Source of the DNA: Candidatus Saccharimonadales bacterium
GTDB taxonomy: Bacteria > Patescibacteriota > Saccharimonadia > Saccharimonadales > EFPC-124
DNA: 64,000 nt
Assembly (NCBI GenBank): GCA_035457485.1
Contig: DATIBO010000006.1
Span: 178,659 to 242,658 of the forward strand
Reading direction: 5' to 3'
In this document: in pieces, positions 23,188 to 55,585 of the stretch
Position numbering within the stretch: the stretch's first letter is position 1
How the letters are laid out: every line of letters begins with the position of its first letter
The notes under the pieces: generated by a model
Database searches by the model: none
What the model saw: only the letters and a program-made list of their open reading frames with translations
Told to the model about the DNA's origin: nothing
Program-made: the position numbers and the translations under genes

Positions 23188-23350
23188 GTTAGAATTAACT
23201 AGGAATTAATTAAAAACTAAATGCTTTTGTTTGGAAGTACGTGAAATTCGTACGCTGTGCCGCAACGGTAAGGTCAAGCCAAGCCCGATACAAACAAAAA
23301 GCTATATATCCCGAGCAGGAACCAAAAGTATTTTTGAATTACTTTAAATA

Positions 23351-46483: not shown

Positions 46484-46560
46484 GGCACCGTAGCTCAGAT
46501 GGTTAGAGCGTAGGACTCATAAGCCTAAGGTCACTGGTTCGATCCCAGTCGGTGCTACCA
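46484..46560 (+). tRNA. tRNA-Met (CAT), elongator-like
   Basis: ggcaccg/ta/gctc-agatggtta-gagc/g/tagga-CTCATAA-gccta/aggtc/actgg-ttcgatc-ccagt/cggtgct/a/cca, 77 nt. The T-arm region resembles E. coli elongator tRNA-Met. Confidence 0.85.
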
Positions 46561-48091
46561 AAATAGGATTTTTAGCGTCTTCGGACGCTATTTTCTTTAT
46601 TAACAGATAAGATTCTGCCAATTTAGCGGTTCTAAATCCCGTCTCACAATCGTATACAAGACCTTCTGGGAAGATTGCATCTTGAATACGCCTTTTGACC
46701 TCTATTGGTGCGAGGTTCCAAAATGATGCTGGATTGCTCATGAACAACAGAGCATTGTCTATTACTTGCTCCTTATCCTTGATATCGTCAGTAATCTCAG
46801 AGCGGCGTAATTCTATTTTGGTAATGTCGTTATCAACTTCTGCTAGTTTACGGTCTTTATCTGCTTCACTAATTTTGTTATCTATATACAAATCTAGTGT
46901 ACGAATACGTTTGTCCTGTAGGGCGTTTAGCTCACTGTCTAATGTACGCGAAAGGTTGTGTGCGTCTCGTGTTTCGTTATTCCATTCACGTAGCACGATA
47001 TGTTTAAACAGCTTCTGCGCGTCTTCTGTTGGTCGTACACGCTCCATTAAGTCCATGAAGTCCTGATGCACTAAGCCACGCATCTTGCTCACAGGCGCAC
47101 CAATTTCTTTAGCCCTACAAAACATGCAAGAATAGCGAGGACTCGGGCCACTGCGACCACGAGGAGAACTTCCAGTCATAGGTTTACCGCAGGTATGCTG
47201 CAGGAATCCGCTACGTAATGGCCATTCCTCTTCAGCAGAGCGGCTAAAGTTACGCAAGCTACCATTCAAGATTGCCTGATTACGGTAGTAAGTGGTCTCA
47301 CTAATGATGGGCTGGTGTATACCCTGAATTAGCCTGCCGCCTATATAGTCGGAAGTTACGAATCCAGCATAAAGTGGGTTACCTAACATGTCCTTTACCA
47401 TCTGCCATGTTCGCATGCCATTCTTTCGACTACGAATACCAATCTTGTACGCGAAATCACGAGCATTCTGTACCGTATAAGCACCCGTAGAAAACTCTTC
47501 TAGCAGCTGCTTCATCTTTGGGGCATCGTCATTAGGTTCGATAGTCACAATACCTGTTGCTGTCCTAATACGCCTGTAGCCAACGGGTGCAGCATGAGGC
47601 CAAGCCCCTTGCTCGAGACGAGCTATCATACCGCCCGTCGTACGAGCTAATCGAATCTCATTATCAAACTCCGCAAATGCTGCAAGCATACTTTCCATCA
47701 AGTTGCCCATAGGGTCATCACTGATAGGCTCGGTTACCGATACTACTTTGATTCCTAGCTTTTTCAGTTGTGCTTTGATGATATGGTGATATTCACTCTT
47801 ACGAGCTAACCTGTCCACCTTCCAGATAATGCAGTGAGATATTTTGCCTTTGTTTTTAGCACAGTAATCAAGCATCGCTGCTAGTTTTGGACGGTCTATG
47901 AGTTTCGCAGATACACCTTCTTCACGAAATACATTCTCATTAGGCAATTCAATGCCATTTGATTTAGCGTAACGCATACAGGCATCGGTTTGACTATCCA
48001 AACTGGTACCTTTTACTTGGTCATCACTCGATACTCGTACGTATGCAACTGCCTTCATAATTTCTTCGGTATTTTTAGAACTTTTACTCAT
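46517..48091 (-). CDS. Large serine recombinase (integrase)
   Basis: Resolvase catalytic N-terminus AVAYVRVSSDDQ, a recombinase domain, a Cys-containing zinc-ribbon-like segment (HTCGKPM...YSCMFCRAKE), and a coiled coil (LDSELNALQDKRIRTLDLYIDNKISEADKDRKLAEVDNDITKIE). The last 44 nt overlap tRNA-Met. Confidence 0.9.
   Translation of the reverse strand: MSKSSKNTEEIMKAVAYVRVSSDDQVKGTSLDSQTDACMRYAKSNGIELPNENVFREEGVSAKLIDRPKLAAMLDYCAKNKGKISHCIIWKVDRLARKSEYHHIIKAQLKKLGIKVVSVTEPISDDPMGNLMESMLAAFAEFDNEIRLARTTGGMIARLEQGAWPHAAPVGYRRIRTATGIVTIEPNDDAPKMKQLLEEFSTGAYTVQNARDFAYKIGIRSRKNGMRTWQMVKDMLGNPLYAGFVTSDYIGGRLIQGIHQPIISETTYYRNQAILNGSLRNFSRSAEEEWPLRSGFLQHTCGKPMTGSSPRGRSGPSPRYSCMFCRAKEIGAPVSKMRGLVHQDFMDLMERVRPTEDAQKLFKHIVLREWNNETRDAHNLSRTLDSELNALQDKRIRTLDLYIDNKISEADKDRKLAEVDNDITKIELRRSEITDDIKDKEQVIDNALLFMSNPASFWNLAPIEVKRRIQDAIFPEGLVYDCETGFRTAKLAESYLLIKKIASEDAKNPILVAPTGIEPVTLGL
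46573..46598 (+). terminator. tRNA-Met intrinsic terminator (UUCG-loop hairpin)
   Basis: tagcgtc-ttcg-gacgcta followed by tttt. It lies inside the recombinase ORF on the opposite strand. Confidence 0.65.
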
Positions 48092-48750: not shown

Positions 48751-49638
48751 ATGATTTACAGAGTGACTGATTTATTCAATAACAGAGAGATTGCGGTAGG
48801 GCTATGGCTGATGGTACTGATAGTCTTTGCTGCTAGTAAAAAGGAAGTACGTTCATCATTTAAGGACGTTCTTAAAGCATTCTTCACGCCTAAAATAATC
48901 ATACCGTTATTACTGTCATTCACGCCAAGCGTATTGGTCGTATGGCTATTGGCATATTTAAATCTTTGGGACTTGTCTGTACTCAAAGAAACAATCTATT
49001 GCGTTATCGGTACAGGCATCATTATGTTTGGTAAGTTCAATAGCGTTAAAGATTTGAAGTCACTATACAGGCAAACCGCAAAAGAAACCCTAGCATTAGT
49101 GGTCTTGCTGGAGTTCATTATTTGGCTTTATGTATTTCCTTTGTGGGTTGAGCTGCTACTGGTGCCGTTCGTAACTTTGGTAGTGCTGTTAGCGACAGTG
49201 GCAAAGTACATGAAAACGGACGGTATAGAGTTAACGCGCAAAGTGCTAAATGGTACGCAAGTATTTATTGGCCTGCTTATACTGCTATTCGCATTTATAG
49301 GCTTTGCGAAAAGTCCTGCAACATTATTTACCCTGCAGAATCTAGAGCTGTTTTTGCTGCCTATTATCCTTTCATTAACCTTCGTACCTTCCGTGTACTT
49401 CATAGCGTTGTATAGCAAGTATGAATTGGTATTCAATCGAATTAACTACCCCATGAAACTGAACCGTAAAAGCAAGCGGGCTATCAAACTAGCAGCTATC
49501 AGGCGCTGCGGCCTGAGCGTGTATGTTACAGGCGAAATGATACGTCATTTGGCAATCAACTTAACCACTGACACCACCAAGGCTCAAGCCCTAAAGCTCA
49601 TAAAAACCTTTGACCCAAAGCAACCATCATTCTTATAG
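48751..49638 (+). CDS. Orphan polytopic membrane protein (about 7 TM) with a basic soluble C-terminal tail
   Basis: 295 aa with no recognisable motif. Confidence 0.55.
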   Translation: MIYRVTDLFNNREIAVGLWLMVLIVFAASKKEVRSSFKDVLKAFFTPKIIIPLLLSFTPSVLVVWLLAYLNLWDLSVLKETIYCVIGTGIIMFGKFNSVKDLKSLYRQTAKETLALVVLLEFIIWLYVFPLWVELLLVPFVTLVVLLATVAKYMKTDGIELTRKVLNGTQVFIGLLILLFAFIGFAKSPATLFTLQNLELFLLPIILSLTFVPSVYFIALYSKYELVFNRINYPMKLNRKSKRAIKLAAIRRCGLSVYVTGEMIRHLAINLTTDTTKAQALKLIKTFDPKQPSFL

Positions 49639-49657
49639 CCCGACTTTACCAGAATCG

Positions 49658-49691
49658 CCTCTGAGCCTGATTCAAATTAGGTGTTTTTATT
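49658..49691 (+). terminator. Intrinsic terminator, copy 1 of a repeated cassette
   Basis: cctctgagcctgattcaaattaggtgtttttatt. Stem gcctga/ttaggt (with G-U pairs) plus a T-run. Confidence 0.55.
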
Positions 49692-53646: not shown

Positions 53647-53677
53647 CAAGATTTAAAGGTCAAGTTTCCTTAAATCA

Positions 53678-53711
53678 CCCCTGAGCCTAAATCAAATTAG
53701 GCATTTTTATT
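53678..53711 (+). terminator. Intrinsic terminator, copy 2 of the repeated cassette
   Basis: cccctgagcctaaatcaaattaggcatttttatt. Stem gcctaa/ttaggc plus a T-run. Confidence 0.6.
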
Positions 53712-53806
53712 GTTGAGTAAAGTCTAAGTTCATATTTTGATTTACAGCGTAAGATTCGAATCATCTCCAGAGGTGATTTGCAGCATCTTTGTTATATAAT
53801 GAAAAA

Positions 53807-53948
53807 GTCTAGATTCAACAATTAGAGTATTAAGGTCAACAAGCCTTTCGTTTGAACCGTAAATACGGCAACTCCTTGCGAAAGCAGTTAGGTTCAAACC
53901 TGATTGTTGAGTCTAGACAACCCTAGCGAGGGGTTGTCGTTTTTATTT
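53807..53948 (+). ncRNA. Candidate structured RNA / cis-regulatory leader ending in an intrinsic terminator
   Basis: Nested helices: gtctagattcaacaat (53807-53822) pairs with attgttgagtctagac (53903-53918) over 16 bp with one G-U. gtttgaacc (53850-53858) pairs with ggttcaaac (53891-53899). There is a GAAA-tetraloop hairpin at 53877-53886. The terminator is gacaaccc/gggttgtc plus a T-run (53916-53948). Confidence 0.35.
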
Positions 53949-53962
53949 AAGGAGATACTGCT

Positions 53963-54226
53963 ATGACACAAGAAGAATTGAACTCGGTAACTAATGGAAT
54001 CCAGAAGAATCAAGAACGTTTATCAAACGAAGCGCAGCAAGATAAAGACCGTAATCTAGAACAGCAGAAACTTGAACTACAACAACAGCAACTTAACTTG
54101 CAGCAGCAACAACAGAACACAAACCAACAACTAGTCATTGGCGGCTTAATATTGGGTGGAATCCTTGTATTATCGATAGCTGTATATCTACTAGTTAAGA
54201 CGTTCAAGACTAATAAGAAGTCCTAG
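53963..54226 (+). CDS. Q-rich coiled-coil protein with a C-terminal TM anchor
   Basis: AAGGAG SD. 87 aa: QQKLELQQQQLNLQQQQQNTNQQ, then LVIGGLILGGILVLSIAVYLLV. Confidence 0.55.
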   Translation: MTQEELNSVTNGIQKNQERLSNEAQQDKDRNLEQQKLELQQQQLNLQQQQQNTNQQLVIGGLILGGILVLSIAVYLLVKTFKTNKKS

Positions 54227-54397
54227 TACGGTATATTACGGTATAACCAAAAGCTGCTAGAAATCCGTCGATTTACAGATGTTAAGGTATGGATTTTTCG
54301 TTTTCTGCTTATGGCATGCTTACGCTATAAAGTAGTACCCTAGCAGACAGGACTTACACGACACTTTTGTGGATGCCCCACCGTACCCCACACCTAG

Positions 54398-55315: not shown

Positions 55316-55585
55316 AATGTTATGGCTTATTATCAATATTTTCCGAGATAATGTACAGCGTAAGCTGTTTGACGCATTATGGCACTGTTCAATTCTTGCT
55401 ACTTAAGACTCTATGAGGTAAGTGATTCGCATGCTCTGGTATATTTCAGACGCCACAATCAGTTCGCGTTTTATCTGGTTCCAAGTCGTCAATAGCGTCT
55501 CTACCAGAACTTATATTTATTGACTTCTGACACTGTTTGTATACACAGAGTAGGTCAAGCAGTATTGGGTGAATCTTGTTATTAT

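Follow-up and report, generated by a model that had tools for sequence, protein, structure and literature searches.

A conserved structured leader RNA with two competing pairings, a candidate transcription attenuator in the backbone of Saccharibacteria serine-recombinase islands

Saccharibacteria are ultrasmall and live on the surface of other bacteria. We analysed a 64-kb stretch of DNA from Candidatus Saccharimonadales (hereafter the window), which contains a serine-recombinase island with defence cargo and the tRNA that is its integration site. The recombinase gene is followed by small ORFs and then by a 295-aa gene. Next come a gene for a 1293-aa SF1 helicase, then the RNA element and the small ORF studied here, and after these a convergent 312-aa gene. 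The helicase carries an MTES_1575 nuclease domain and matches PDC-S37 (4e-71), a candidate defence protein in PADLOC. The flanking features to which the text refers are these:

46484-46560, tRNA-Met
46517-48091, minus strand, large serine recombinase gene
53685-53711, plus strand, intrinsic terminator of the upstream helicase-nuclease gene (hairpin 53685-53702), found by terminator scan and conserved in type A loci, one of three sequence types described below

A 59-nt direct repeat brackets the helicase-nuclease gene (49633-49691 and 53653-53711, 75% identity) and includes the upstream terminator, and one related locus (L009) has the same backbone without the helicase-nuclease gene. This arrangement is consistent with insertion of a cassette. 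The RNA and the small-protein gene are part of the island backbone. In L161 they directly adjoin the recombinase module, and in other loci cargo lies either between that module and the RNA or 3' of the small-protein gene. Among the cargo in these other loci are type III, type IIG and Eco47II restriction-modification systems, a DNA methylase accompanied by an HNH protein, and genes that encode HATPase_c_3 and Schlafen/AlbA-like domains. The terminator at 53685-53711 makes the RNA a transcription unit of its own.

The element is housed in a non-coding gap of 316 bp (53647-53962), which a first-pass annotation of the sequence had put at 250 bp. The RNA is a three-way junction (P1, P2 and P3), followed by an intrinsic terminator and then by the RBS of the small ORF. 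Its parts, including the two strands of a long-range helix (PK) between the P3 loop and the terminator, are listed in order:

53790-53800, plus strand, promoter -10 region TGtTATATAAT (TATAAT at 53795-53800), hexamer conserved across loci
53807-53825, plus strand, 5' arm of P1, 19 nt, pairs with 53900-53918
53832-53847, plus strand, P2 hairpin AAGGT-CAACAA-GCCTT (53832-53836 with 53843-53847), both-sided changes in all five pairs
53850-53858, plus strand, 5' arm of P3, pairs with 53891-53899
53865-53879, plus strand, PK 5' strand ACGGCAACTCCTTGC within the 32-nt P3 loop, includes the family-invariant ACGGCA
53876-53887, plus strand, small GAAA-loop hairpin TTGC-GAAA-GCAG, read from the sequence
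53891-53899, plus strand, 3' arm of P3, with a conserved TTA (of the TTAGG motif) just 5' of it, supported by pair counts
53900-53918, plus strand, 3' arm of P1, whose final 3 nt (GAC) double as the start of the terminator 5' arm
53916-53938, plus strand, intrinsic terminator hairpin, 9 bp, loop TAGCGA, found by terminator scan
53926-53940, plus strand, PK 3' strand GCGAGGGGTTGTCGT, made up of the terminator loop, its 3' arm and the next 2 nt, pairs with 53865-53879
53940-53948, plus strand, terminator T-tract, conserved in all loci
53950-53955, plus strand, Shine-Dalgarno AAGGAG; in every locus the RBS lies within a few nt of the T-tract
53963-54226, plus strand, ORF of the 87-aa protein, from the ORF list

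The helices that the first-pass annotation had described were found where it placed them. Its 16-bp closing helix (53807-53822, GTCTAGATTCAACAAT, with 53903-53918, ATTGTTGAGTCTAGAC) contains one G-U pair and gains three further pairs, which makes P1 a 19-bp helix. Its 9-bp internal helix (53850-53858, GTTTGAACC, with 53891-53899) pairs perfectly and is the stem of P3, capped by the 32-nt loop, and its GAAA hairpin, TGC-GAAA-GCA, is present at 53877-53886. The terminator scan recovered the proposed intrinsic terminator (GACAACCCTAGCGAGGGGTTGTC and GTTTTTATTT, 53916-53938), whose first three bases (GAC, 53916-53918) are common to the closing helix, and the AAGGAG at 53950-53955 and the ATG of the 87-aa ORF at 53963 are likewise as it had them. 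The P2 hairpin, the -10 box, the terminator of the upstream gene and the long-range loop-terminator helix were absent from that annotation.

A TATAAT-like hexamer stands 6-7 nt 5' of the first P1 base, a G, in every locus, and TG precedes it in most. The hexamer is kept even where the sequence further upstream is unrelated (L144, L161, L159, L006 and L015), and this conservation places the transcript start most likely at G53807, where P1 begins, or immediately beside it. A simple -35/-10 scan did not call the box at 53795-53800, for want of a -35 element. A leader peptide was considered and rejected; the -10 box contains the only ATG (53799), which other loci lack.

The plus strand of the element folds with a minimum free energy of -52.1 kcal/mol, compared with -31.8 ± 3.4 kcal/mol in 200 shuffles (z = -5.94), none of which was as good, and folding of the minus strand is weaker (z = -4.02). 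In nested minimum-energy folds of growing transcripts, P2 forms first and is followed by P3, P1 and the terminator.

Related loci were collected by two protein searches with the small protein, a scan of GTDB species genomes and a scan of metagenomes with an RNA pattern. At least about 20 loci were recovered from very large collections, and they supplied 15 distinct RNA sequences of three sequence types (A, B and C). The RNA family looks rare, and its distribution as known so far is narrow. The organism labels available, for the window's own metagenome-assembled genome and for two of the three loci from the genome scan, are Saccharibacteria; the majority of the contigs come from metagenome assemblies and carry no label. 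We built a covariance model from 11 sequences, and it found exactly one RNA copy in each locus, in all cases immediately 5' of the downstream gene and on its strand, and no second copy in the 64-kb window. Type A scored 158-177 bits, type C (L161-L163) 110-112 bits and type B (L006-L008, L159 and L160) 55-57 bits, compared with 20-41 bits on the reverse strand. The GAAA hairpin belongs to type A; in types B and C it is weak or missing.

Among type A loci, the RNAs are 90-99% identical, compared with 47-86% for the adjacent ORF and 48-91% for the upstream 150 nt, which suggests that the type A RNA is under purifying selection. The type of the RNA does not track the ORF: L003 and L006 share 79% identity in the ORF and only 65% in the RNA, which indicates modular exchange. 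By the covariance model the RNA is absent near some homologues of the small protein (L002, L013/L014 and L151-L158). In L151-L158 a different leader of about 100 nt follows a tRNA, and the leaders of L002 and L013/L014 also differ.

We next counted pairing in the 15 sequences, using a structural alignment that was built by hand on the proposed structure. MAFFT shifted the 5' part of type B, and the tool-based count was limited to the intact columns while the full helices were counted by script. The script gave these values:

P1, 19 pairs, 98.6% of cells paired, 8 pairs changed on both sides
P2, 5 pairs, 98.7% of cells paired, 5 pairs changed on both sides
P3, 9 pairs, 100% of cells paired, 4 pairs changed on both sides

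Together the three helices hold 17 pairs with both-sided changes, with at least 98.6% of cells paired, and in the intact columns none of 500 shuffles reached the observed pairing values. P2 is variable in sequence even inside type A. The changes in P1 and P3 mostly divide type B from types A and C and so represent few independent events. The helices P1, P2 and P3 and the terminator are thus kept among homologous loci with compensatory changes, where the first-pass annotation had named a lack of covariation or of helix conservation as grounds for abandoning its proposal. Of the five imperfect P1 positions, four read T-G or G-T on the plus strand. This G-U bias, together with the strand-specific model scores, argues for an RNA of the plus strand and led us to reject a DNA palindrome.

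Four short motifs (TAGA, ACGGCA, CGAA and TTAGG) recur in all three types, between helices that differ from type to type. TAGA lies at the base of P1 and in J1/2; the other three lie in the P3 loop, where ACGGCA doubles as part of the alternative helix described below. The RNA therefore combines, as a riboswitch does, a covarying structured domain with invariant unpaired loop and junction nucleotides that could form a binding pocket.

The P3 loop sequence ACGGCAACTCCTTGC (53865-53879) is complementary to GCGAGGGGTTGTCGT (53926-53940) over 15 contiguous pairs, three of them G-U. When the loop was shuffled in the window, 14 of 20,000 shuffles reached a run of 15, and the duplex energy is -28.8 kcal/mol, compared with -12.0 ± 3.1 kcal/mol in shuffles. 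A contiguous complementary run of 14-16 is present in all 15 distinct sequences, formed, for example, by ACGGCACCATGC with GCGTGGTGTCGT in type B and by ACGGCAATCACTC with GAGTGGTTGTCGT in type C. In the intact part of the alignment (A5), 100% of the cells of this helix are paired, with three pairs changed on both sides and four on one side; none of 500 shuffles matched the observed values, and sliding the partner lowered pairing to 28-44% of cells. The terminator hairpin, counted in the same way, is 96.9% paired with no pair changed on both sides.

The substitutions near the top of the terminator stem separate the two pairings. With the RNA numbered as the window coordinate minus 53806, C69G with G124C in L016/L144 and C68A with G125T in type C are compensatory in the long-range helix, which they keep, and break the upper terminator stem; two upper terminator pairs are broken in type C and in L016/L144. 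These two compensatory events are independent. The terminator-loop variants C121T, G122A and A123G, which occur within type A, also retain the long-range pairs. We considered the reading that the loop and the terminator 5' arm are two copies of a protein-binding motif and rejected it as the sole cause of the complementarity, because the 3' strand tracks the loop and not the 5' arm (type C and L016/L144). The terminator is also under selection, as judged from the alignment: its seven core pairs are kept in all types, with the type B arms changed together, and the core pairs and T-tract are invariant in types A and C. Three strands thus change in concert, the hallmark of a pair of alternative functional structures. 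Computationally, the terminator and the loop-terminator helix share a strand and are both conserved, as expected of a riboswitch or attenuator expression platform. As in an attenuator, the sequence places a G+C-rich hairpin with a U-tract between promoter and gene, with a competing pairing upstream. Support for the structure and its two competing pairings is good, though it rests on three sequence types plus minor variants.

The long-range helix crosses P3 and P1, so that the alternative state would be an H-type pseudoknot. By rough estimate, its linkers of 6, 11 and 7 nt are long enough for the helix to lie alongside P3 and P1. Energy evaluation gave about -50.5 kcal/mol for the terminator state; the junction core has -41.3 kcal/mol, and the duplex of the pseudoknot contributes a further -24.3 kcal/mol when no pseudoknot penalty is applied. 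With a penalty of 7-10 kcal/mol, which is our own estimate, these values make the two states comparable in the model, or the pseudoknot slightly favoured. The 5' arm of the GAAA hairpin overlaps the PK strand, and the hairpin must therefore open before the pseudoknot forms.

No known RNA family matched the element, in keeping with the first-pass annotation, which could name none and had proposed an Rfam search. At gathering thresholds, Rfam 15 returned for the whole window only tRNAs, MDR-NUDIX and a borderline cobalamin hit, all away from the element, and permissive Rfam scans of the element of all three types gave E = 0.22 at best (freshwater-2, 21.8 bits against a threshold of 49.9). In phage and plasmid collections the element had no blastn match, and the small protein had no tblastn match in phages. 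A protein-based scan of IMG/VR viral contigs found no relative. A loose core pattern gave 115 loci in IMG/VR, and the covariance model matched 0 of the first 100; a stricter pattern gave one match, by chance. Neither this RNA nor these islands turned up in our full-text searches of the literature. The RNA is a new, previously uncatalogued family of a known kind, the structured and putatively attenuating leader.

The 87-aa protein has a hydrophilic Gln/Glu-rich N-terminal part of 56 aa, one C-terminal transmembrane helix and a basic tail. It is identical to a hypothetical protein from a metagenome-assembled genome of Candidatus Saccharimonadales. The searches returned 17 homologous clusters, and all labelled clusters and loci are Saccharibacteria except for a 3.7-kb contig binned as Gallionella. 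The protein matched no Pfam family, PADLOC gave nothing better than E = 0.003, and low complexity may have contributed to its weak match to the holin family phrog_689 (E = 9e-4). We speculate that tight control would be sensible for a potentially membrane-damaging protein. In every locus the RBS and ATG follow the T-tract by about 2-25 nt, which leaves no room for a separate promoter. The gene behind the cassette can change: in L144 the same cassette lies ahead of a different membrane protein of 228 aa, and in L142 ahead of a small-protein variant whose N-terminus differs. The small ORF of L009-L012 carries a frameshift at a G run, and the RNA there is still 99% identical to that of the window, which suggests that the value of the RNA may not depend on the small protein. 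Sequestration of the RBS was rejected as a family feature: a loop CTCCTT in type A can form 6 bp with AAGGAG in the window and 9 bp in L142, but types B and C do not share this pairing.

Our preferred reading, which we hold with about as much confidence as doubt, is that the element attenuates transcription in cis, as an orphan riboregulator in the backbone of the serine-recombinase integrative islands of Saccharibacteria. Transcription would begin at the element's own -10 promoter, at about 53807, and the nascent RNA would fold into the three-way junction with its P1 closing helix, variable P2, and P3 with the 32-nt loop. The segment 53926-53940 would then have two mutually exclusive partners, the adjacent 5' arm or the P3 loop. 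In the terminator state, RNA polymerase would stop at the U-tract, releasing an RNA of about 140 nt and leaving the downstream gene off. In the pseudoknot state, the P3 loop (53865-53879) would capture 53926-53940 in a 12-16-bp helix and block the terminator, and polymerase would read through into the RBS and the small membrane-protein gene. The pseudoknot could nucleate in the terminator loop before the terminator 3' arm leaves the polymerase: 53926-53929, which pair with 53876-53879, are transcribed before that arm, which may give the pseudoknot a kinetic head start if the GAAA hairpin is open. The balance between the two states would be shifted by a metabolite, a protein or some other factor, through binding or release of the conserved nucleotides in the loop and the junction. 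The helices and their covariation, both competing pairings and the fixed place ahead of an RBS are observed; what we infer is the start site, a pseudoknot that hinders termination instead of aiding it, and regulation of the choice between the states.

Attenuation is favoured because an RBS and start codon always lie close 3' of the element, with no room for another promoter. Several points speak against it. The 19-bp P1 is too stable for ligand gating as in classical riboswitches, and capture of the 3' arm is an unusual means of antitermination, given that kinetics favour the local hairpin. A helix that reaches the U-tract could in principle itself promote termination; Yarnell and Roberts reportedly found in 1999 that oligonucleotides supplied in trans can replace the upstream half of a terminator hairpin. 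The RNA is also intact where the small ORF is frameshifted, and homologues of the small protein occur without it. We regard it as a tentative possibility that the RNA forms a new riboswitch or ribosensor class native to Saccharibacteria (Patescibacteria), in which the three-way-junction aptamer senses a metabolite or an infection- or stress-derived signal and gates a holin-like membrane effector of a mobile defence island through the unusual capture of the terminator loop and 3' arm in the pseudoknot.

The first-pass annotation had seen in the layout a riboswitch, an attenuator or an antitoxin-type RNA, or else a stand-alone sRNA. The helices kept in homologous loci support this interpretation, the covarying pairing that competes with the terminator adds specific support for an attenuator, and an antitoxin of the tandem-repeat type III kind is excluded: Tandem Repeats Finder detected no array in 53647-53962, and arrays only inside the Gln-rich ORF and just after it. 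As for an sRNA of about 140 nt, the pseudoknot would be its mature fold, compact and nuclease-resistant, and the RNA would act in trans or bind a protein; the local hairpin would serve only for efficient termination, the released RNA would refold into the stabler pseudoknot, and read-through into the downstream gene would be incidental. The strong terminator with its invariant T-tract, the closure of both RNA ends by a 19-bp helix, the extreme sequence conservation, which in type A includes the helices, a pseudoknot state thermodynamically at least comparable to the terminator state and the survival of the RNA next to a frameshifted ORF would all suit such a molecule. Although it is the strongest competitor of the attenuator, we think it rather unlikely, in view of the RBS and ATG that always stand a few nt past the T-tract in the same orientation, even when the downstream gene is another one, and of the restriction to one copy per locus at this position only. 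A target is also not apparent in the window, where the loop has no complement elsewhere within 3 mismatches.

A toxin-antitoxin or addiction module, with a holin-like toxin and the leader RNA as antitoxin or silencer, or with a hok-like folding pathway, appears improbable to us. The order of promoter, structured RNA, terminator and gene fits the type III layout, as in ToxIN (promoter, RNA, terminator, toxin); the product is small, with a single transmembrane helix and the weak holin-family match; the module sits in an integrative island backbone, adjoining the recombinase module in L161; and the coupled three-way covariation resembles that of hok mRNAs, which show the same feature. Against this, the RNA has no tandem repeats, the protein resembles neither ToxN/AbiQ-type RNases nor any Pfam family, complementarity between the RNA and the translation start is not conserved across the three types, and the cassette of L144 stands before another membrane protein of greater size. 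An antisense RNA gene is not evident either; promoter-like sites are at chance level (2 found, 2.7 expected), one of them a minus-strand site inside the ORF, and the terminator is not bidirectional. Least credible, and in our view very improbable indeed, is a role at the DNA level, with the inverted repeats serving for protein binding or recombination, as an operator, a single-strand origin or an att-like site. Within a type the long P1 arms are nearly invariant, and the element does lie on a recombinase-bearing island, but the recombinase gene and the tRNA integration site are several kb away in the window. The imperfect positions are overwhelmingly G-T or T-G on the plus strand and would read as A-C mismatches on the opposite one, and the covariance model gives 158-177 bits on the plus strand against 20-41 bits on the minus strand. 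Moreover, the helices swap sequence between types with pairing kept, and the element is bounded by a -10 box and a terminator T-tract.

The candidate attenuator can be set beside known systems. It resembles pseudoknot riboswitches of the fluoride/crcB, ZTP, preQ1 and SAM-II types in its structured 5' leader, conserved unpaired nucleotides and covarying scaffold, and in a loop-to-3'-tail pseudoknot that overlaps an intrinsic terminator with a membrane-protein gene next. Unlike in these riboswitches, the terminator loop and 3' arm are captured rather than the 5' arm, P1 is 19 bp long and overlaps the terminator by only 3 nt, Rfam gives no match, and the regulated genes offer no metabolic clue or candidate ligand. 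With the trp-type, T-box and PyrR/BglG-type attenuators it shares mutually exclusive pairings that decide read-through of an intrinsic terminator before the first gene. In contrast to these, it has no conserved leader peptide, and Rfam detected no T-box or RAT/ANTAR-like motif in it; its antiterminator strand is also located in a hairpin loop that two helices enclose, which makes the alternative a pseudoknot and not a nested helix.

The type III toxin-antitoxin systems ToxIN, CptIN and TenpIN likewise consist of a promoter, a non-coding RNA, a Rho-independent terminator and a gene on mobile or defence-associated DNA; the present RNA differs from them as a single structured unit free of tandem repeats that is paired with a small membrane protein instead of an endoribonuclease. 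The type I mRNAs of hok/sok also encode a small membrane protein and show mutually exclusive pairings with coupled covariation and paired 5' and 3' segments. In contrast to hok/sok, no antisense RNA was identified here, the whole regulatory structure, terminator included, is upstream of the ORF, and the protein is longer, with its 56-aa hydrophilic N-terminal part. Processive antitermination RNAs (HK022 put and EAR) are, like this candidate, cis-acting structured RNAs of mobile elements that lie upstream of terminators and affect read-through, but for the element Rfam gave no match in sequence or structure. Its direct complementarity to the terminator that it precedes points to a local, not a processive, mechanism.

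To our knowledge, almost nothing is known about gene regulation and non-coding RNA in Patescibacteria. The RNA described here would be a natural switch with two selected, mutually exclusive folds that are supported by covariation and amenable to direct testing. A loop pseudoknot that captures the 3' arm of a terminator is uncommon and, if confirmed, would extend the repertoire of attenuator designs; the rarity of the family limits its general reach. A recent perspective notes that Patescibacteria lack inducible expression systems and that riboswitches are promising candidates (PMC11665869). The RNA family is thus a possible genetic tool for Patescibacteria, and within their genomes it marks a backbone module, composed of recombinase, RNA and small membrane protein, of islands that exchange defence cargo.

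The serine recombinase ORF of the island (window 46517–48091, minus strand) overlaps at its 3' end the tRNA-Met gene (46484–46560), and the island is therefore consistent with an element integrated into this tRNA gene. No att repeat of at least 14 nt was found at the opposite island end. Within the island, the 1293-aa helicase-nuclease gene lies between two copies of a 59-nt direct repeat (75% identity, window 49633–49691 and 53653–53711), which contains a terminator-like hairpin. The homologous locus L009 has the same backbone as the window, running from a 276-aa gene through the terminator of the 59-nt repeat to the RNA, without the helicase. Because the repeat flanks the gene and a helicase-free backbone exists, the sequence arrangement suggests that the helicase-nuclease gene is a cargo cassette inserted with duplication of the junction.

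Between this repeat and the RNA are two elements that are both retained in most loci carrying type A RNA, the sequence type of the window, and a related sequence is found further downstream:
Within window 53740–53780, about 55–65 nt 5' of the RNA start: conserved motif, consensus AAACGCAAGAWTCG, window version ACAGCGTAAGATTCG
Within window 53740–53780, 3' of this motif: imperfect palindrome AATCATCTCCAGAGGTGATT
Window 55351–55364, 5' of a 312-aa gene: ATGTACAGCGTAAG, resembling the upstream motif
These elements could be a candidate operator for an island regulator.

The small-protein gene of L009 (3312–3600) is frameshifted at a GGGG run immediately 5' of the TM segment, so that its product is 61 aa long; the stretch encoding the TM helix is unbroken, but in a different frame. 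The frameshifted allele is also present in L010–L012, contigs from several samples carry it in identical form, and the RNA 5' of the frameshifted gene is 99% identical to that of the window. This allele could mark a gene that has recently become a pseudogene, or it could reflect phase variation or programmed frameshifting. A 3.7-kb contig (L019, JBAZAY010000126.1) from a MAG bin labelled Gallionella sp. also has a type A RNA together with the small protein. Mis-binning of a Saccharibacteria contig is the most likely explanation; transfer beyond the phylum would be the alternative.

P0011, a homologue more distantly related to the small protein, is located 3' of a tRNA gene in L151–L158 (for example, L152 689–1094). 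Its leader is about 100 nt long, differs from the RNA, is G+C-richer and comprises the following parts:
Its own -10 box
Small hairpins
An AAACGGC motif
A hairpin 5' of the RBS
The covariance model of the RNA gave no match to this leader, which may serve as an analogous regulator or be a strongly diverged one.

Rfam matches to other structured RNAs in the window comprised a clear MDR-NUDIX RNA in the same Saccharimonadales genome (3839–3897, 68.8 bits) and a borderline cobalamin riboswitch (23210–23313; 32.3 bits versus a threshold of 31.5, 104 nt versus a 189-position model).

The sequence directly 3' of the small ORF (window 54227–54340) is conserved in L009, GGTATGGATTTTT and ATAAAGTAGTAC being examples. 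A terminator-like hairpin falls within this region, which may correspond to the 3' UTR or be close to the end of the island. In some islands, genes for proteins of about 140–155 aa and about 220 aa follow the small-protein gene in the same orientation (L159 8926–9588, L003 5773–6441), the 220-aa protein having a weak HEPN match (E = 2e-4). Since these genes are co-oriented with the small-protein gene, the RNA leader may control a small operon in such islands.
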